Shown here in pieces: positions 6,043 through 63,803 of a stretch of DNA of 64,000 nt; position 1 is the stretch's first letter, and every line of letters starts with the position of its first letter. Source of the stretch: Pseudomonadota bacterium (lineage in GTDB: Bacteria > Bdellovibrionota > Bdellovibrionia > Bdellovibrionales > Bdellovibrionaceae); contig JBEGVH010000017.1 in NCBI GenBank assembly GCA_041178425.1, positions 1 to 64,000 of the forward strand. Reading direction: 5' to 3'. A model generated the notes under the pieces. That model saw nothing but the letters and a program-made list of their open reading frames with translations. It was not told the DNA's origin and did not search any database. Position numbers and translations under genes: made by a program.

Positions 6043-7167
6043 CTAAAACAGGTAGCGGCGATAAGCAACACTGGAAACAAGGCCCAGACCACACATGGTT
6101 GTTAGCATACTGGTTCCCCCATAAGAGAGCAGCGGGAGGGGAATTCCTACAATTGGTAATAGCCCAATGACCATTCCCATATTTATAAACATATGCCAAA
6201 AAACGTAAGACAACACTCCGACGGTCATGAGAGCCGCAAACTTATCGTTGGCTTGGTTGGCTATCTTGATTCCTACTAAAAAGAGAACCATAAAGAAGGT
6301 AAGAGTACAAAGGCTTCCAAAAAGACCCCATTCTTCACTCAAAACACTGTAAATAAAGTCGGTGTGGCGCTCGGGGAGAAATTCAAGTTGGGCTTGGGTT
6401 CCCTTGCGGAAGCCTTTTCCCCAGAACTTTCCAGATCCCACGGCGATTTTTGATTGAATGCTGTTGTAGCCAGTGCCACGTGGATCGGCCGTGGGTGACA
6501 TAAAGGTGAGAACCCGGTTTTTTTGGTAATCTCGCAGGCCAAAGTTCCAGGCAAGAGGGGCGGCAATGGCGACGGCGACAAGAGCAGATACAATGATTCC
6601 CTTTCGTACTTTAACAAAGAGAATCATTGAACCACCAATGGCAATCAACATCATCGCGGTTCCTAGATCGGGTTGTTCAACAACGAGCCCAAAGGGAATC
6701 AATAATAAAATGAGGGGCCAAATCATATCGCGAAAGCCCATGCCTGGGCCCATAGAGTTCTTTTCACTCAAAATATGGGCGAACAAAACAATCATGGCCA
6801 TCTTCATTGTTTCAGAAGGCTGGTAACGGAAGAATCCTAGGTCGATCCATCGTTGAGCGCCATAGGCCACTTTTCCGAAGAACGTAACACCCAAGAGTGC
6901 GCCGAGGTTGAGAATATAAATAACGTAGGCCAAGCGGCCGATAAATTGGTAGTCGATGATGGTTAAGATAAAGAACAGACCCCAACCCACTATGAGCCAT
7001 ACGATCTGCTGGTAAAATAAACCACCCATTTCTTCGCTGCTAATTCCATGAGTCGCGCTGTAGAGATTTAAAAGTCCAAAAGCGTTAAGCCCAAGAATGA
7101 TGAGTATGAGGCCCCAATCTAGCTTTGAGAAAAAATTACGTTCTTCAACTCTTAGTCCAAATTCCAT
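6043..7167 (-). CDS. rodA: Rod shape-determining SEDS glycosyltransferase RodA
   Basis: GAQRWI, QPSETMK, QPDLGTA, QSKIAVGSG, FLPERHTDFI and PLLSYGG motifs; downstream of PBP2. Confidence 0.95.
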   Translation of the reverse strand: MEFGLRVEERNFFSKLDWGLILIILGLNAFGLLNLYSATHGISSEEMGGLFYQQIVWLIVGWGLFFILTIIDYQFIGRLAYVIYILNLGALLGVTFFGKVAYGAQRWIDLGFFRYQPSETMKMAMIVLFAHILSEKNSMGPGMGFRDMIWPLILLLIPFGLVVEQPDLGTAMMLIAIGGSMILFVKVRKGIIVSALVAVAIAAPLAWNFGLRDYQKNRVLTFMSPTADPRGTGYNSIQSKIAVGSGKFWGKGFRKGTQAQLEFLPERHTDFIYSVLSEEWGLFGSLCTLTFFMVLFLVGIKIANQANDKFAALMTVGVLSYVFWHMFINMGMVIGLLPIVGIPLPLLSYGGTSMLTTMCGLGLVSSVAYRRYLF

Positions 7168-56566: not shown

Positions 56567-57439
56567 ATGGAGATGCTATCGGGACAAATGACAAGCGATC
56601 AAAAAGTTTTTTTTCGAAACCTGCTGGAGAAGAAAAGAAAAAACCTTCTAGCCACCGAAGAAACTCTGAGACGGCAAGATATTCAGCCAATGAGTTTTGA
56701 AGGGGCAGGAGATATCACCCGAATCAAAACGCATCCTGCCGATCTGGCAACTGACAATCAGGATCTAGCCCTTCAAGGGGCGCTCTCTGATCGCAACCTT
56801 CATTCGCTTCAGGAGATCGAAGAAGCCTTAGACCGAATGGATCGGGGTGGCTACGGCGAGTGCCTGAGTTGCAAAGAAGCGATATCGCCGAAGCGATTAG
56901 AAGTTCTCCCGGAGGCGCGTTTTTGTGTTGAATGTGAACAGGATTTAGAGGAGATGAAGCACAATATCGGACTTGATCGAAGTGCTAAGACGTCGGTGCA
57001 AACGTTAGAAACAGCAAAAGCGATTGAGTCTCTCGGTCAACTTTTAGTTTCGGATATTATGCGCGATTCACCAATCTCACTTAAACCCAACGAGGGAATT
57101 CACCAGGCGATGACGCTCATGTCTGATTACGGAATCAGGCACTTGCCAGTTGTTGATTCAGAGGGTGATTTACAAGGGGTTGTTTCTGATCGCGACATCC
57201 TTAACGCCGTGGTGCGCCTTCGCCCTTGGAAATTGGTCGAGCGGATGGAAAATCCCTGGCAAGAAGTTCGTGTGAGTGCGGTGATGACAAAAGTTCCCGA
57301 AAGCATAAACCCTGACACAAGTCTGACCGAAGCTGGTCGGATGATGCTTGAAAATAAATTCAGTGCGCTGCCGGTCGTGGATGGAAATCGATTAGTGGGA
57401 ATTATTACCGAAAGCGATTTTGTACGGTTGATTTCGTGA
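56567..57439 (+). CDS. TraR/DksA C4 zinc-finger protein fused to a CBS-domain pair
   Basis: HPADLATD, EIEEALDRM, YGECLSC...RLEVLPEARFCVEC; then IRHLPVVD...GVVSDRD and SALPVVD...GIITESD. Confidence 0.85.
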   Translation: MEMLSGQMTSDQKVFFRNLLEKKRKNLLATEETLRRQDIQPMSFEGAGDITRIKTHPADLATDNQDLALQGALSDRNLHSLQEIEEALDRMDRGGYGECLSCKEAISPKRLEVLPEARFCVECEQDLEEMKHNIGLDRSAKTSVQTLETAKAIESLGQLLVSDIMRDSPISLKPNEGIHQAMTLMSDYGIRHLPVVDSEGDLQGVVSDRDILNAVVRLRPWKLVERMENPWQEVRVSAVMTKVPESINPDTSLTEAGRMMLENKFSALPVVDGNRLVGIITESDFVRLIS

Positions 57440-58543: not shown

Positions 58544-59090
58544 AGTTGGCGCTTTCATCGCCTTTGTTTTATTGGGGGCCACCCTTTATCTTTATGTTCA
58601 TGAGATTAAGGGAATCATGGGTACTCCCAGAGAAGCGTGGGAAGAAGACCTCACGGCTGATTGTGCGATCGTGCTAACAGGGGGGCCTGGCCGAGTTAAG
58701 GAAGGCCTCGACATGCTGGTACGAAAACAAGTGCAGCGTTTGATTGTTTCGGGGGTAAATCCATCGGTTGGATTGAGAGACCTTTACCCCCAATTGGCCA
58801 TGTATCCAGACATCAATGACGAGCAAATTGTTTTAGAGCGCCATTCAGCCACAACTTTTGGAAATGCTCAGCAGTCGCTACCGATCGTCGAAGCCTTGCA
58901 GTGTCGTGATGTTTTGTTGGTGACTTCGTATCTTCATATGCGGCGATCCTATCGCACCTTTTTAGCCACTTTTCCTGAGGATGTACGAATAGTTCCCTAT
59001 GCTGTTTCGGGTAACGACTTTCCTCCGCATGTTTCAGATCTTATCGTAGAAGCCACGAAAGGCGCTTTCTATTCTCTTTGGGCCTATTAG
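58509..59090 (+). CDS. YdcF/DUF218 family protein
   Basis: N-terminal TM, AIVLTGG..RV, LIVSGV, SATTFGNA and LVTSYLHMRRS. Confidence 0.85.
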   Translation: MSKLKSRFISLKVGAFIAFVLLGATLYLYVHEIKGIMGTPREAWEEDLTADCAIVLTGGPGRVKEGLDMLVRKQVQRLIVSGVNPSVGLRDLYPQLAMYPDINDEQIVLERHSATTFGNAQQSLPIVEALQCRDVLLVTSYLHMRRSYRTFLATFPEDVRIVPYAVSGNDFPPHVSDLIVEATKGAFYSLWAY

Positions 59091-59512
59091 ATTTTACATG
59101 GGCGCTCGTTCATCAATACTATTTTGGAGTCTTCATTGGGGGAGACTGGATTCGGTGTTCGTAATTGAATGGGGCTTGGTGCGAGGTCTGTTAGACTGTC
59201 CTGCTTTGTTGAGACCTTTGTGGGAGTGGCTTCGATCGAGCCTCGATAAAACCGGAGGGGTTTGTTTAAACTTGCTTTTACAACGACGGCTTGATCAATT
59301 TTATTGTTGCTTAGGTCTTGTAATGATTCCGAGAGTTCTAGAGTCGTTTCCGACATAGACTTTTCGTATAGCTTTAAGACTATTTTAGATTCTTCTTTTC
59401 GAATGTAACCCCAAAATTCAAAATCACCGCAGCCAGAAAGTGCAATGGCAGGCTCGCCCAAGAAAACGAGGAGATTGATTGATATACAAATTAAAACACA
59501 AAGTCTTTGCAT
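59087..59512 (-). CDS. Small secreted hypothetical protein (terminal Cys pair)
   Basis: Signal peptide, CGDF near the mature N-terminus and PCKI at the C-terminus; overlaps the upstream peptidase gene. Confidence 0.6.
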   Translation of the reverse strand: MQRLCVLICISINLLVFLGEPAIALSGCGDFEFWGYIRKEESKIVLKLYEKSMSETTLELSESLQDLSNNKIDQAVVVKASLNKPLRFYRGSIEATPTKVSTKQDSLTDLAPSPIQLRTPNPVSPNEDSKIVLMNERPCKI

Positions 59513-60780
59513 GGATTGGCACCTTTCGCCTCTTTGGAGTATTGTTTGTAGAGGAGTGAGTACAATTTCTTCTCCTCAATGGCGACTTTTTCGGCTTCGA
59601 CCTCGAGTGAGGGGAGCTTGGTGAGATTAGCAGTGGCCGTTTTCCATTTTTTGAATTCAGCAGACTTCACAAAGTGATCCAAGGCTTTGTGTTTTAATTG
59701 ATCTCGCTCATTCAGTTTCTTTGAGGAGCCTTTGAGGTCTTGGTACGAGGCTTCGAGGGCATCAAAGGTACCACACAGTTGCCAGTCATTGTTGTAGTCG
59801 ATGCATTTTCGAGGGCCCAAAGAACTGGCCGCATCAATCTTTGATTGTACAGATTTTCTTTTGTTGTTGTAGGTTTCAATGGCTTTTTTCAATCCAGACA
59901 ATTCGTTCGAATTGACGGAGGCGTGAGTTAATCGTTGTAATTCGTCTTGAAGCTTTTTGAAGTCGGAGCATTGGGCACCAAAAGTTTTTTTTGTATCGGT
60001 GTTTGGGGATTTAAGAGTGTCGAGATCCATCATCGCATGGCTGAGAGATTTGGTGGTTTCGTAGGCCTTGCGTCCGGCGGGCGAAGAAATTTGGGGGGCA
60101 GCAAGAACATCTGGAGAAAGATTGCGCATGTTTAAAAAGACGTCTTCGATGCTAGCGCCAGGTTTGATTTTTTCGGCGAAATCAGACCCTGTTGTATTAT
60201 AACCAACGCCCTCACCAGTGCCTGTCACTACACAAGTTTTATTGGTTGCTAGCGCTAAAGTGTATCCAGAGTGGCAAGAAGCATCAAAGATGGCGAGTTT
60301 TACGCCTTTGCTCTCAGCAAGGTCTCTTAGCTTTTTCATCTCATCAACGTTGAACTCGCCATTGGTGGTAACAACAGTATGAGTAAGGTTTTTTCCTGTA
60401 GGACTCAATCCGTGGGTGACTATATTTAAAAACAGTTGATCACCTTTTTTGATAGAACCGCTACGAATGGCCATTTGGAGGTCTGCTATGGTGGAGTTCA
60501 TTCCGGCGGTGGTGGCAGATTTATTTGATCCCTTGGCATATTTAGCGATCATTTTCTCTGTATCAGAGTGTCCGCCATCGAAAACAGAGATCTTGCGCCA
60601 TTGACTGAAGGCCGATGAAGTCATGAGCGTTTTGTAGGTGGAATCAAAAATAGTTTTTGATCCGCTATCACCACCGCCACCCATCACTACCATGTGGTTT
60701 TCGGCAAAAGCAATGGAGCAAAGAGAATTCAAAAAAAAGGGGACCATTACCAATCTGAGCCGACGTGAGAATGCTAACAT
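59491..60780 (-). CDS. Secreted caspase/legumain-fold (clan CD, C13/C14-like) cysteine peptidase
   Basis: Signal peptide; GDQLFLNIVTHG (His) and LAIFDASCHSG (Cys) dyad motifs; helical C-terminal region. Confidence 0.7.
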   Translation of the reverse strand: MLAFSRRLRLVMVPFFLNSLCSIAFAENHMVVMGGGGDSGSKTIFDSTYKTLMTSSAFSQWRKISVFDGGHSDTEKMIAKYAKGSNKSATTAGMNSTIADLQMAIRSGSIKKGDQLFLNIVTHGLSPTGKNLTHTVVTTNGEFNVDEMKKLRDLAESKGVKLAIFDASCHSGYTLALATNKTCVVTGTGEGVGYNTTGSDFAEKIKPGASIEDVFLNMRNLSPDVLAAPQISSPAGRKAYETTKSLSHAMMDLDTLKSPNTDTKKTFGAQCSDFKKLQDELQRLTHASVNSNELSGLKKAIETYNNKRKSVQSKIDAASSLGPRKCIDYNNDWQLCGTFDALEASYQDLKGSSKKLNERDQLKHKALDHFVKSAEFKKWKTATANLTKLPSLEVEAEKVAIEEKKLYSLLYKQYSKEAKGANPCKDFVF

Positions 60781-60881: not shown

Positions 60882-61958
60882 TCACGCAATGGGGTGAGCG
60901 GGGATTGGGGGAGTGAGGCTTTGATCGAAGGGCCGATAGTCCGAGCCGAAGGTGAGCTTCAACGCATGGTCTGAGAGGGCCTTGATAAGGTGGATGTTTT
61001 GGTTGGCGTCGGCCATGAGTTGCACAAACTGAAGGTCTGACCACTGGGGGGCGAGCGAGGGCACTTCCATGGGATCGAGTGCACCAAGAAGCCATTGTTT
61101 CAAGTAAGACCATGAGTGTGGGCAGTGGTAATAATCCAAATGAAAAGTGGGTGAGGCCCTCACGGAGGGAAGCTCGGAAAGTAGCGGCTCCTCGATGAGA
61201 AACGCTAATCGTTGATAGACTTCATCCATCGCCTTTTCACAAGCCTCTTTGAGGTGGGCACGGGCACCCCACCCCAGTAGTAGGGGTAAATCCGCCGCCC
61301 GCGGAAACCCAAAAATTCCCACCACAGCGAGGCCCTGTTTGAGATCGTTGTCGTCGCCAAAATGGTAAGCGGCAAGGTCGAATTTCTCTGCGAGTACTCC
61401 TGGCCAATGAATGATCGACGCAGGCAATCGCCGGGGAGCTTGTCGCCCGTACCAGAAGCGCAAGAATCGATCGCGTTCGAGCAATTCAAATCCAGCACTA
61501 TTAATGGCATTCGTTAAAGAGCAATGCAAGGCTACACCATTCGATTTAGAGTAAACCCAATTTGTTTCTATTGTGTTGGGCCCGGGGAAAACCTTCTCGC
61601 ACGCAACGGAGGAAACCTTTTTCCCTCCACGGTTGAGCAGAGGAAACTCAGCATGAGGCTCTGTGACACATCTTTGAAGGCGCTCCCATAGATGCGCTCG
61701 CTCCAATAATTCAAAGAATGCTCGTTCGGTTATTTTTAATCGAGCCTCTTTTGCAGCCGAAATTCCCGCAGAAGATTGGGGGTTCTCTAACCATGCGGCG
61801 GAGCCCGCGAGATGAGTGCGGTCTTCCTCCTCGAAACTGAGGCCTCTTCGGTGCAGTCTCCATTCACCGAAGGGCAGGCTGTCTTCGAGCACAGAGATTC
61901 GGCCCCATTCCGGGGGCAAGGGGTATGTCCTGAGTAGGGCCGCGAGGGCTTTGTTCAT
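60882..61958 (-). CDS. YcaO-family ATP-dependent amide-activating enzyme (stand-alone)
   Basis: RAFFELLER, SKSNGVALH...AINSAGFELLERD, GWGA...ACEKAMDEVYQ and Pro-rich C-terminus PPIPAHPIA. Confidence 0.8.
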   Translation of the reverse strand: MNKALAALLRTYPLPPEWGRISVLEDSLPFGEWRLHRRGLSFEEEDRTHLAGSAAWLENPQSSAGISAAKEARLKITERAFFELLERAHLWERLQRCVTEPHAEFPLLNRGGKKVSSVACEKVFPGPNTIETNWVYSKSNGVALHCSLTNAINSAGFELLERDRFLRFWYGRQAPRRLPASIIHWPGVLAEKFDLAAYHFGDDNDLKQGLAVVGIFGFPRAADLPLLLGWGARAHLKEACEKAMDEVYQRLAFLIEEPLLSELPSVRASPTFHLDYYHCPHSWSYLKQWLLGALDPMEVPSLAPQWSDLQFVQLMADANQNIHLIKALSDHALKLTFGSDYRPFDQSLTPPIPAHPIA

Positions 61959-62608
61959 GCGCCCTCCGCGAGTTCATTCAGATGGTCATTGATCATTATG
62001 GCGGCTTTTTGAAGCGCATTCATAAATAGTAACTGTTTATCTTCGGTGTCGACCAGATCAACGATCACACCCAGATCATGAACCACGTGGTCTTTATCGA
62101 GCTCTTCGTGGAGAGCAATCACCGAGAGCGAGCTCCGGGGGTAACCCGCTTTTTCGAGGCTCTCTAAAAAGGGGGGAGCTGCGAGAACGGTAAAATACTC
62201 AACAAACGTAATGTAGGCCAGGTAAGACAAGGGGTGATTGGTGCTGAGGTCTCCCACCCAGGTCATGAGGAGTTGATTTGCTTGGGTGATGTCAGAGTCG
62301 AGTGCGATATCTTGAGCCGCTCCCAAAGCATCAAGATCATTCATGGCCCAAGCGTCATGGCCAATTTCTTCGTTGAATTTATCGGTCATAAAGGCGCTTA
62401 GCTCTGCCAGGCCTCGCACTTGTGCCACGTCGCGCGCCTTAGTTAAGTGAATAGGTGTATGGCGAACGGCATAGAGACAATTTTTAACATAGCGAACAAC
62501 GAGGTCTTTGGTGAGATGGCCATTTTGAGCAGTCAATACGAGTTTATTGTTCGTAAGTATATTTTTAGTGGCAGTTTCGATTTCGGTTTTTATTTTTTGA
62601 TCAAACAT
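61955..62608 (-). CDS. Heme-oxygenase-like diiron oxidase (HDO; iron-containing redox enzyme, CADD/PqqC/TenA fold)
   Basis: All-helical; EEIGHDAWAMNDL, Y-x3-VEY and LHEELDKDH metal-ligand pattern; ATGA overlap with YcaO. Confidence 0.75.
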   Translation of the reverse strand: MFDQKIKTEIETATKNILTNNKLVLTAQNGHLTKDLVVRYVKNCLYAVRHTPIHLTKARDVAQVRGLAELSAFMTDKFNEEIGHDAWAMNDLDALGAAQDIALDSDITQANQLLMTWVGDLSTNHPLSYLAYITFVEYFTVLAAPPFLESLEKAGYPRSSLSVIALHEELDKDHVVHDLGVIVDLVDTEDKQLLFMNALQKAAIMINDHLNELAEGA

Positions 62609-62638
62609 TTGAACCTCCTGGTAGTGTGTTTGAAAGGC

Positions 62639-62665
62639 GGGGAGCCACCACCTGTGTAGCTCCCC
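62639..62665 (-). other. Intercistronic GC-rich stem-loop upstream of the HDO gene
   Basis: mRNA GGGGAGCUAC-ACAGGUG-GUGGCUCCCC, a 10-bp stem with one G-U pair. Confidence 0.6.
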
Positions 62666-62701
62666 ATTTTAATTAAAAGCTTAATTGAGCGAATTTCTTT
62701 T

Positions 62702-63406
62702 TCATGGCTTTCCTCCTTGTTTTTTGGTGATTGGAATCAATTCCCCCATTGGTGAATCCATTTGGGGGCGAGGCCCCGCACAGAATTGATCCAAAAAAAT
62801 TATTTCAGCGTTTGAGTTTAAAATCTTGGTAAAACGAATGAGTGCGCCCCATCGTTCCGAGAGGTTGAGTCCTGTTATATTGAACTGCAGTTTATTAAAA
62901 ACATGAACATTTACTAAATTGGCGGGAGACACGTCGGTCTCAACTCGGTCGATATGATGAGTGGCTAACACTGAAAGAAGATATTTTACAAATCCTTGAA
63001 TGCGACCTGCACTCGAAAAATCGCGTAGAATCATTCCATAGCGAAGGTAATAGGAGTGCCCATCCATAAGAGTGCCAATCACCAGCCCAATGGGCTGGCC
63101 CTGATGTGTTAACAGAAAGTGATCGGCTATTTTTTGGTAGTAACGGAGTTTGGCATCTGATGTACCTTCGGTGAAAAAACGGTTACCCCAGTATTCTAGC
63201 TGAAAAGTGCTTTTGTGGTGTTCGAGGATAAACTGCTGGGCTGTAGAGGCATCGATGATTTCGATCTGGTCAAAGGTTGTGAGTGAATAAGGAAAAACTT
63301 TGCTCCAATCGAGATCAAAAATAAACTCCGAAAGTGGGCGCTCGGAGTTTTGGTGGTTGGTCTCCTTAGTGGCCTCTGGCGCATTGTTCAAGGCTTCTGC
63401 CTTCAT
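62702..63406 (-). CDS. GNAT-fold acyltransferase-like protein
   Basis: FLLTHQGQPIG, YYLRYGMILRDFSSAG (motif A-like) and VETDVSPANLVNVHVFNKLQFNITG (motif B-like); CAGGAGG RBS. Confidence 0.6.
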   Translation of the reverse strand: MKAEALNNAPEATKETNHQNSERPLSEFIFDLDWSKVFPYSLTTFDQIEIIDASTAQQFILEHHKSTFQLEYWGNRFFTEGTSDAKLRYYQKIADHFLLTHQGQPIGLVIGTLMDGHSYYLRYGMILRDFSSAGRIQGFVKYLLSVLATHHIDRVETDVSPANLVNVHVFNKLQFNITGLNLSERWGALIRFTKILNSNAEIIFLDQFCAGPRPQMDSPMGELIPITKKQGGKP

Positions 63407-63803
63407 AAAAACCTCCTGTTGTTTTCAGGTTGAAGGCGGTGAAATCTGGTTGCGAGTTAATTTTTTTTAAACGCTTATTTTGTGTGCTTATAAAACTTTG
63501 GGCGAAAAATCAAAATTTGCAGAAAGGGTTGGATTCATTGGGGGAGTGAGCCCTTTGAGTAACAAAGGAATCTTTGAGCCTTGGCAGTGAGACGTGGGCG
63601 GAATCACTTTGAATCAATTGTGGTGATGGAAAGTTTTGAAATGCTGACTGAGAGTTCGACGATATTTAAGAGAACAGGCCTTACGTGGGTAGTTTCTGAT
63701 TGGTTTAATTAGCCACTGACCATTCTGAATTTCGGTGCTCTAATGAAAGGAGTCCATCGCCGGGGCATTGATTGCTATTTGTAGGTAAGGGGAGAAAGAA
63801 TAA

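Follow-up and report, generated by a model that had tools for sequence, protein, structure and literature searches.

A YcaO cassette with a ten-residue candidate precursor and a linked sensor kinase: a putative modified-peptide signal of Bdellovibrionota and Myxococcota

On what substrate does a stand-alone YcaO enzyme act when it is encoded with an oxidase and a candidate acyltransferase? The question is raised by the first 64,000 nucleotides of contig JBEGVH010000017.1 (assembly GCA_041178425.1, Bdellovibrionaceae), hereafter the window, in which three co-oriented genes encode a GNAT-fold protein, a heme-oxygenase-like dimetal oxidase (HDO) and a minimal YcaO. An initial annotation described this arrangement accurately: coordinates and sequence agree with the shared orientation, with the CAGGAGG ribosome-binding sites (RBSs) upstream of the GNAT and HDO genes, and with the ATGA overlap coupling HDO to YcaO. 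It saw no obvious precursor peptide, favoring a route through an N-acyl amino acid and keeping an unusual peptide made on the ribosome and modified after translation (RiPP) as the minor alternative. Yet a 10-codon open reading frame (ORF), MKKKFAQLSF, lies between GNAT and HDO, with its own AAGGAGG RBS and an ATGA coupling to the GNAT stop, and the minor alternative has become the better one. That the cassette is a RiPP system, with this 9–10 residue peptide as the enzymes’ substrate, is very probable from the genes compared here. We put at roughly 60% the probability of the fuller reading, in which Bdellovibrionota and Myxococcota use the cassette to make a signal from a modified peptide and detect it through a two-component receptor of its own.

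The small-ORF search around homologous clusters that had been proposed at the outset was productive. Reading the DNA after the GNAT stop finds the same tiny ORF at nearly all homologous loci, as a peptide of 9–10 residues with the motif MKK[KR]-[FY]A-x-x-[C/S/T]-hydrophobic-stop. As a measure of chance, this motif matches 5 of the 63,349 small ORF starts in the 3.06-Mb genome of the window, the true one included. The survey covered 122 loci (the window, L030–L148, L185 and L186; L149 was left out as a sister type), from which removal of 20 duplicates left 55 genome and 47 metagenome loci; the motif was fixed before the metagenome loci (n = 56) were fetched, making these a held-out set. Among 48 evaluable genome loci the peptide is in place at 46, as a strict match at 44 and as a close variant keeping Cys or Thr at the penultimate position (−2) at two; L073 has its strict match downstream of YcaO, on the opposite strand; L074 has none. 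The 26 evaluable held-out loci give 22 matches, 21 in place and one, at L105, directly after its GNAT gene; L100 has a variant of 13 residues that lacks the C/S/T end, and no peptide was seen at L109, L117 or L127.

How these peptides vary indicates what is being conserved. Across 70 non-relaxed peptides, the stop codon is TGA in 32, TAA in 30 and TAG in 8; position −2 is Cys (31), Ser (20) or Thr (19), encoded by TGY, AGY/TCN or ACN; and position −5 is Ala in 67, with all four Ala codons in use. Because all three stops, all four Ala codons and unrelated codons at −2 are employed, selection appears to act on the peptide, and this codon evidence argues that the short ORF is under selection as a protein. 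An RBS-like word precedes 70 of the 73 peptides. We predicted in advance that genomes with a lone YcaO would carry the rest of the cassette elsewhere: the cognate GNAT was found in five of five, each time followed by the peptide, and HDO was also seen in two. In these five split genomes, and at L077/L080, the peptide ORF stands apart from YcaO yet is unchanged. The 70 nucleotides after the peptide stop fold at z < −2 in 45 of 72 loci (median −2.6), and the window’s whole 120-nucleotide region is not unusual in folding (z −0.94); the hairpin there probably stabilizes the precursor mRNA or lowers read-through. A DNA pattern for the nine-residue peptide gave 9 matches over 301 genomes, three of them at known loci, with the control equally frequent, an uninformative design. 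At L185 (G057, 6242–6274) an identical peptide occurs in a genome of another family with a very divergent YcaO, possibly as a shared dialect or by convergence.

The residues at position −2 are those on which YcaO chemistry operates. The YcaO of the window matches PF02624 (E 2.5e-15), and its AlphaFold2 (AF2) model, made from the family alignment with a predicted local distance difference test (pLDDT) of 94.5, retrieves LynD (E 1.6e-9) and the M. kandleri YcaO (E 1.7e-9) in Foldseek, with template-modeling (TM) scores of about 0.53–0.56; the matches listed at E < 1e-5 are YcaO structures exclusively. A profile search finds TruD, MusD and LynD, and the motifs SNG..A..E..ERD and G.G...E..Q align with TruD and MusD. 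Comparison with homologues indicates that the ATP/Mg-binding Glu, Arg and SNG motifs of a YcaO are present, as initially read: E83, E86, R87, S139-N140-G141, E158, E161, R162, E246 and Q249 are kept in 49–52 of 52 aligned homologues, and the Pro-rich C terminus ends in HPxx (H355 in 52/52, P356 in 50/52). The SagD-type model TIGR03604 scores 45.2 bits, below its cut-off of 219.25. The family comprises 475 representatives at 50% identity (E up to 1e-30); in a quick, poorly resolved tree (10 of 49 branches starred), which gives no order of events, the nearest relative is labeled Bdellovibrionota.

An azoline at position −2 is the probable outcome, because YcaO chemistry proceeds on Cys, Ser and Thr, because the C terminus is Pro-rich, and because there is no TfuA: PF07812 was not found in the whole genome, which is 100% complete and holds one YcaO and one PF14518 protein. 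Pro-rich C termini are typical of azoline formers (PMC8442711, cited here, like the other papers below, from part of its text). The absence of TfuA had been noted from the window and extends to the genome, and a role in thioamide formation was rejected on that ground. The genome has two ThiF-family genes; both sit on other contigs.

The last residue, in turn, would be the concern of the oxidase. HDO matches PF14518 (Haem_oxygenas_2; E 5.2e-7), and its AF2 model, again from the family alignment (pLDDT 97), has a seven-helix heme-oxygenase-like (HO-like) fold that Foldseek places with 3dde (TM 0.86), UndA (0.79) and CADD (0.78), so that the folds first proposed for both YcaO and HDO are upheld. 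A set of three His and three carboxylates—E81, H84, E137, H167, D171 and H174—is kept in 98–100% of 59 homologues and lines up with 3dde and 3oql; such a set is the criterion for an HDO (PMC13108848), and the protein is a predicted diiron (3H/3C) oxidase. At some loci a B12 radical SAM enzyme stands in place of HDO. Peptides of radical SAM loci have Phe, Trp or Tyr as last residue in 11 of 11 cases; where HDO alone is present, 20 of 56 do (Fisher p 6.6e-5, with kin among the loci not independent). That the last residue tracks the tailoring enzyme suggests that HDO and the radical SAM enzyme are both directed at it. Substrates of HDOs, including the peptide of MboA, bind iron via the C-terminal carboxylate, a mode reported for MboA, AetD, UndA, HrmI and PolF (PMC13185094). 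The fixed one-residue distance to the C terminus, the enzyme-dependent residue and this binding mode together point to the last residue as the site of HDO action, and by analogy decarboxylation or desaturation there is reasonably likely. For modification of ribosomal peptides, a 2026 review of HDOs cites the VarO paper alone (PMC13108848). Some copies are decaying: L097, L105 and L139 keep shortened HDO remnants between peptide and YcaO, L092 has frameshifted genes, and L127 has interrupted genes and no peptide.

The third enzyme may be dispensable. Its PF00583 match (E 0.026, score 15.2) lies below the cut-off of 20.7; Atlas features give 0.98, TM scores to GNAT clusters are 0.75–0.83, and the family profile finds GNATs among PDB sequences (best E 8e-11). 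Sequence and model thus indicate a GNAT fold and an acyltransferase candidate, in which the acyl-CoA pyrophosphate loop reads LRDFSSAG where the family consensus is LPxxQG. GNATs acylate RiPP N termini and side chains (PMC9811515). Among the 53 full-context loci, in which YcaO is flanked on both sides by 2.5 kb or more, 42 have GNAT, 38 HDO, 33 both, 10 the B12 radical SAM enzyme, 46 either HDO or radical SAM, and 47 the peptide. The trio proposed in the initial annotation is therefore conserved as a unit in 33 of 53 loci but is not obligatory, given GNAT-less genomes and radical SAM swaps, both scattered over the YcaO tree. Because five whole genomes with complete-looking GNAT-less cassettes hold no cognate GNAT, acylation appears optional, and gene content points to peptide, YcaO and one enzyme for the last residue as the constant core. 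No further gene family recurs in more than four loci, and hence there is no conserved exporter, protease or immunity gene; nor does an E1/ThiF partner, a RiPP recognition element (RRE) partner or a flavin dehydrogenase family recur. A YcaO–GNAT complex prediction scored 0.00 and is used neither for nor against any reading. At 14 loci of distant GNATs (E 1e-11 to 1e-29) no peptide was seen. In a survey of Myxococcota the cognate GNAT is rare, at 2 of 251 genomes with the centre included; the sole new locus repeats the L071 peptide and was left out of the counts.

What, then, might the product do? The divergent sensor kinase, the upstream palindrome and the link to signaling had all been missed at first. 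A sensor kinase adjoins 46 of 47 full-context loci with a peptide, against 1 of 6 without one, and these kinases are of three unrelated types: a membrane kinase with an OmpR regulator, a cytoplasmic Ser/Thr kinase-AAA-GAF-kinase hybrid, and a 7TMR-DISM kinase. The window kinase belongs to the membrane type, its N-terminal 310 residues matching kinases beside YcaO at other loci (E 3e-68 to 2e-6); its homologues have HATPase_c, 4–6 hydrophobic segments and a MASE10/HAMP-like look. With the sensor domain as a profile, 25 of 301 genomes of the phylum give a full-length match. Twenty-two of them carry this YcaO class; in G145 the match lies beside a distant YcaO, and in G173 and G278 there is no cassette close by. 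The peptide is seen in 21 of the 22, and G203 ends at a contig edge. Because the profile came from these loci, what is informative in the scan is that the remaining 276 genomes yield no full-length match. In the genome of the window, fragments of an OmpR-type regulator occur at two contig ends, N-terminal on C42 (2–250, minus strand; 68 bits, with the palindrome upstream) and C-terminal on C30 (1–453, plus strand; 148 bits), and may be halves of the cognate regulator split by assembly.

The palindrome, of 18 bp, came from a Gibbs search of the regions upstream of 24 membrane-kinase loci, in which two of three runs reached 16.3 and 17.0 bits and one missed the motif (12.3 bits), with shuffles at 11.6 and 11.7. 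In leave-one-out scoring the palindrome preceding the cassette outscores 95 of 100 shuffles at 19 of 24 loci and ranks first within its own locus in 12 of 24; in the window it scores 13.2, the best site in the 13.5-kb locus and one that 0 of 100 shuffles reach. It also precedes the kinase gene in 5 of 23 loci, as well as radical SAM, regulator and other kinase genes, and is strong at both sensor loci lacking a cassette. Hybrid-kinase loci, which are without this regulator, exceed 11 bits in only 2 of 24. Since the palindrome follows the kinase–regulator pair, we infer that the OmpR-type regulator binds it, making it a candidate operator of the cognate response regulator. Control of the cassette by kinase and regulator is accordingly a likely part of the gene arrangement. 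An exact pattern over the 301 genomes occurs 0–8 times per genome, without excess over a reversed control, which argues against a general promoter element and gives no sign of a large regulon; a direct-repeat search upstream of the cassette found nothing above 3 of 24 loci. Several other sites deserve mention. The genome’s best palindrome (C20:53935, 17.4 bits) lies 90 bp before a gene for a 227-aa Trans_reg_C protein, possibly a downstream regulator. A 2OG-Fe(II) oxygenase (L035:10139–11065) and an O-methyltransferase (L039:4935–5996) behind the same palindrome may be optional tailoring enzymes. At L187 (G278) and L188 (G173), where sensor and regulator stand without a cassette, the palindrome precedes an HTH_3 gene, with a FabH-like, AMP-binding and MFS gene set nearby; these could be eavesdropping receptors.

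These elements can be joined into a putative pathway. The basic N-terminal MKKKFA would serve as a recognition handle and the last four residues as a variable core. YcaO, with ATP, would cyclize the penultimate Ser, Cys or Thr onto the preceding carbonyl to give an oxazoline or thiazoline, or possibly an amidine via an azoline intermediate, as in streptamidine. The diiron HDO would bind the free C-terminal carboxylate and oxidize the last residue, likeliest by oxidative decarboxylation to an enamide or by side-chain desaturation; at B12 radical SAM loci the aromatic last residue would be modified instead, methylation being the usual reaction of such enzymes. GNAT would acylate an amine—the new N terminus after trimming, or Lys—as an optional step. 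The leader may be removed by general peptidases or by YcaO itself, a matter on which PDB 7u58, by its title, reportedly bears. With both ends capped and one ring, the product would be a small, largely uncharged molecule able to cross membranes without a dedicated exporter, and such a neutral molecule would explain both the lack of a conserved exporter and the cytoplasmic hybrid kinases. The adjacent kinase would sense the product, and binding of the OmpR-type regulator to the palindrome that precedes the cassette would complete a feedback loop. That the product is an autoinducer, the ligand of the adjacent kinase, is somewhat favored by this arrangement.

Several observations weigh against a self-sensed peptide signal. 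The cassette has no protease, RRE/E1 partner or exporter, and no TldD was found in this genome, leaving leader removal and export unexplained. Cys, Ser or Thr at −2 belongs to the strict motif and is at 100% among strict matches by construction, just as positive matches of a sensor profile built from these loci are partly circular. G173 and G278 retain kinase, regulator and palindrome with no cassette nearby. Sensor and YcaO distances correlate (Spearman 0.79), and once YcaO relatedness is removed, similarity of the peptide core does not track the sensor (partial Mantel r −0.07, p 0.82, 26 loci; low power). Hybrid kinases have no membrane helix, so that sensing in Myxococcota would be cytoplasmic. 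In the window itself, the regulator does not adjoin the kinase, the contig ending 75 bp after it, and the palindrome is weak alone, being one of 56 genome sites above 12 bits.

Some of these points suit an explanation in which the same RiPP is merely the output of the two-component system, the kinase sensing prey or stress and the product serving as a small toxin, a predation aid or a metal ligand. A palindrome indicates regulation rather than ligand binding, covariation of peptide and sensor was not detected, and the two genomes with an orphan kinase, regulator and palindrome are readily accommodated. Two parts of the DNA evidence alone do not suit this account, namely the repeated pairing with different receptors and the missing genes for export and immunity: the cassette remains beside a sensor through three receptor replacements, and the other genes led by the palindrome are largely kinases, regulators and tailoring enzymes. 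We hold it to be possible, though rather unlikely. A different doubt concerns chemistry within the RiPP reading. The initial annotation let HDO replace the azoline dehydrogenase, so that the YcaO azoline would be oxidized to an azole and the C-terminal residue would stay untouched; flavin dehydrogenases do not recur as a family across loci, HDO is translationally coupled to YcaO, and the HO-like VarO alters a YcaO RiPP by −2 Da (PMC6511847). VarO, however, acts by desaturation on the side chain of Arg rather than on a ring (PMC6511847), azoline oxidation is absent from the HDO reaction types listed in the part of PMC13108848 drawn on here, and peptides of HDO loci end differently from those of radical SAM loci; ring oxidation is thus doubtful, and action on the last residue is preferred.

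Two further explanations dispense with the peptide as substrate. Were the short ORF a regulatory leader peptide, an attenuator for HDO–YcaO whose enzymes use another substrate, its place just upstream of HDO or YcaO and the hairpin following it in most loci would be expected. An attenuator sits poorly, however, with the restriction of −2 to three YcaO-cyclizable residues through unrelated codons, with a last residue that depends on the tailoring enzyme present, with the opposite-strand position in L073 and the unchanged ORFs of L077/L080 and the split genomes, and with the lack of an Rfam match; it is very unlikely. The main route of the initial annotation, in which GNAT makes an N-acyl amino acid that HDO oxidizes and YcaO cyclizes with no ribosomal peptide, fares least well and is highly improbable: a conserved precursor with a cyclizable penultimate residue exists, and five cassettes have no cognate GNAT anywhere in the whole genomes searched.

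The cassette is genuine and conserved; it very probably represents a RiPP family, apparently undescribed, whose precursor is among the shortest kinds and which is tied, as its gene neighborhoods suggest, to dedicated sensors. The suspicion that the trio was undescribed has held: no account of cassette or peptide was found in the open literature by title or abstract start, a scope that excludes most subscription journals and supplements. Cell-to-cell signals are poorly known in Bdellovibrionota and uncultured Myxococcota, which hunt in populations; a concrete candidate signal, receptor and operator can now be named for both. The precursor is short enough to synthesize and the three-enzyme set small enough to rebuild in Escherichia coli, so that the proposal is directly testable. 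It would entail a YcaO working on a 10-mer without a docking partner and a second HO-like oxidase acting on a ribosomal peptide, after VarO; with 475 YcaO representatives and 73 peptides read, it also points to a natural library missed by ordinary gene callers. More tentatively, this could be a new RiPP class used as a quorum signal by predatory diderms, in which a partner-free minimal YcaO, an HDO acting as C-terminal decarboxylase and a GNAT yield a charge-free heterocyclic mini-peptide, diffusing like an acyl-homoserine lactone, with dozens of dialects and three kinds of receptor kinase wired independently.

Table 1. Coordinates of the cassette and its flanking features in the window
Feature	Position	Strand or placement	Basis
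Membrane sensor histidine kinase, 546 aa	63804–64000, running on to C17:65444 past the window	+	Divergent from cassette; genome ORF
18-bp imperfect palindrome, candidate operator	63455–63472	about 50 bp upstream of GNAT start	Gibbs sampling
GNAT-fold protein, 234 aa, candidate acyltransferase	62702–63406	−	Atlas features, structure, PDB profile
AAGGAGG RBS of precursor, within GNAT 3′ end	62712–62718	−	Sequence
Precursor peptide gene, MKKKFAQLSF-stop	62673–62705	−	ATGA start overlaps GNAT stop; conserved across loci
10-pair hairpin directly after precursor stop	62639–62665	−	−20 kcal/mol
HDO, 217 aa	61955–62608	−	Six ligands, AF2, Foldseek
Minimal stand-alone YcaO, 358 aa, Pro-rich C terminus ending HPIA	60882–61958	−	PF02624, AF2, Foldseek

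Around the cassette, a sigma-70 scan found no site, Rfam gave no match and the GC profile shows no clear island. Two downstream ORFs, 59491–60780 and 59087–59512, have no homologue in the other loci and were rejected as cassette members. The former (minus strand, 101 bp after YcaO) encodes 429 residues with a signal-peptide-like start and no Pfam match above cut-off; its THG and DASCHSG motifs are reminiscent of caspase/legumain-type peptidases. Elsewhere in the window, a 290-aa ORF at 56567–57439 (plus strand) appears, by eye, to combine CBS repeats with a DksA/TraR-type CxxC-CxxC zinc finger.

How does the cassette compare with known systems? The thiovarsolins (VarA/VarY/VarT/VarO) come close in chemistry, with a YcaO and an HO-like oxidase acting on one ribosomal peptide to give short N-acetylated products; as described in the part of PMC6511847 drawn on here, they need TfuA, carry thioamides, derive from a repeating precursor, have no cluster GNAT and belong to Actinobacteria, whereas the present system has no TfuA, a 9–10 residue precursor with Cys, Ser or Thr at −2, and a linked sensor. 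Bottromycin also relies on stand-alone YcaOs without a C protein, and its β-carbon methylation of Phe, Pro and Val (PMC4603692) recalls the aromatic last residue of the radical SAM variant; it uses two YcaOs and forms a macroamidine, in contrast to one minimal YcaO, no protease and a 9–10 residue precursor here. Streptamidine, whose stand-alone YcaO AmiD shows that an amidine is possible instead of an oxazoline, offers the same combination of a short, overlooked precursor and a YcaO with a Pro-rich C terminus, but on the account in PMC8442711 it depends on an E1-like partner together with a hydrolase and transporters, and none of these is conserved here. Linear azol(in)e peptides of the microcin B17 and goadsporin type share YcaO action on Cys, Ser and Thr, and GNAT acylation of RiPPs is known (PMC9811515); the present cassette differs in that it lacks both an E1/RRE partner and a flavin dehydrogenase, offers a single ring site and scores below the TIGR03604 cut-off.

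There are also sister units in Bdellovibrionota (L149; L180, G223; L181, G128; L182, G262; L183, G145), in which an SBP_bac_5-like gene, a distant short YcaO ending in HPxx and a histidine kinase stand in a row, some with a small exported protein upstream. In G145 the SBP and GNAT genes face YcaO, next to a membrane sensor and regulator. The likeness lies in a minimal YcaO ending in HPxx beside a sensor kinase; no 9–10 residue precursor, HDO or cognate sensor was seen in four such loci.

In layout, the cassette resembles peptide quorum sensing. Agr-type peptide quorum sensing has the same gene logic. The enzymes and sensor here are unrelated to those of ComQXPA and agr, occur in diderm predatory phyla and come with no AgrB-like protease or exporter; the receptor type is swapped between lineages, and covariation of ligand and receptor was not detected. 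In ComQXPA a pre-peptide with a variable core, its modifying enzyme, a membrane kinase and a response regulator are encoded together (PMC4008528), and in the present loci, too, the putative pre-peptide, modifier and kinase are encoded together, with a shared putative regulator site before the synthase genes.

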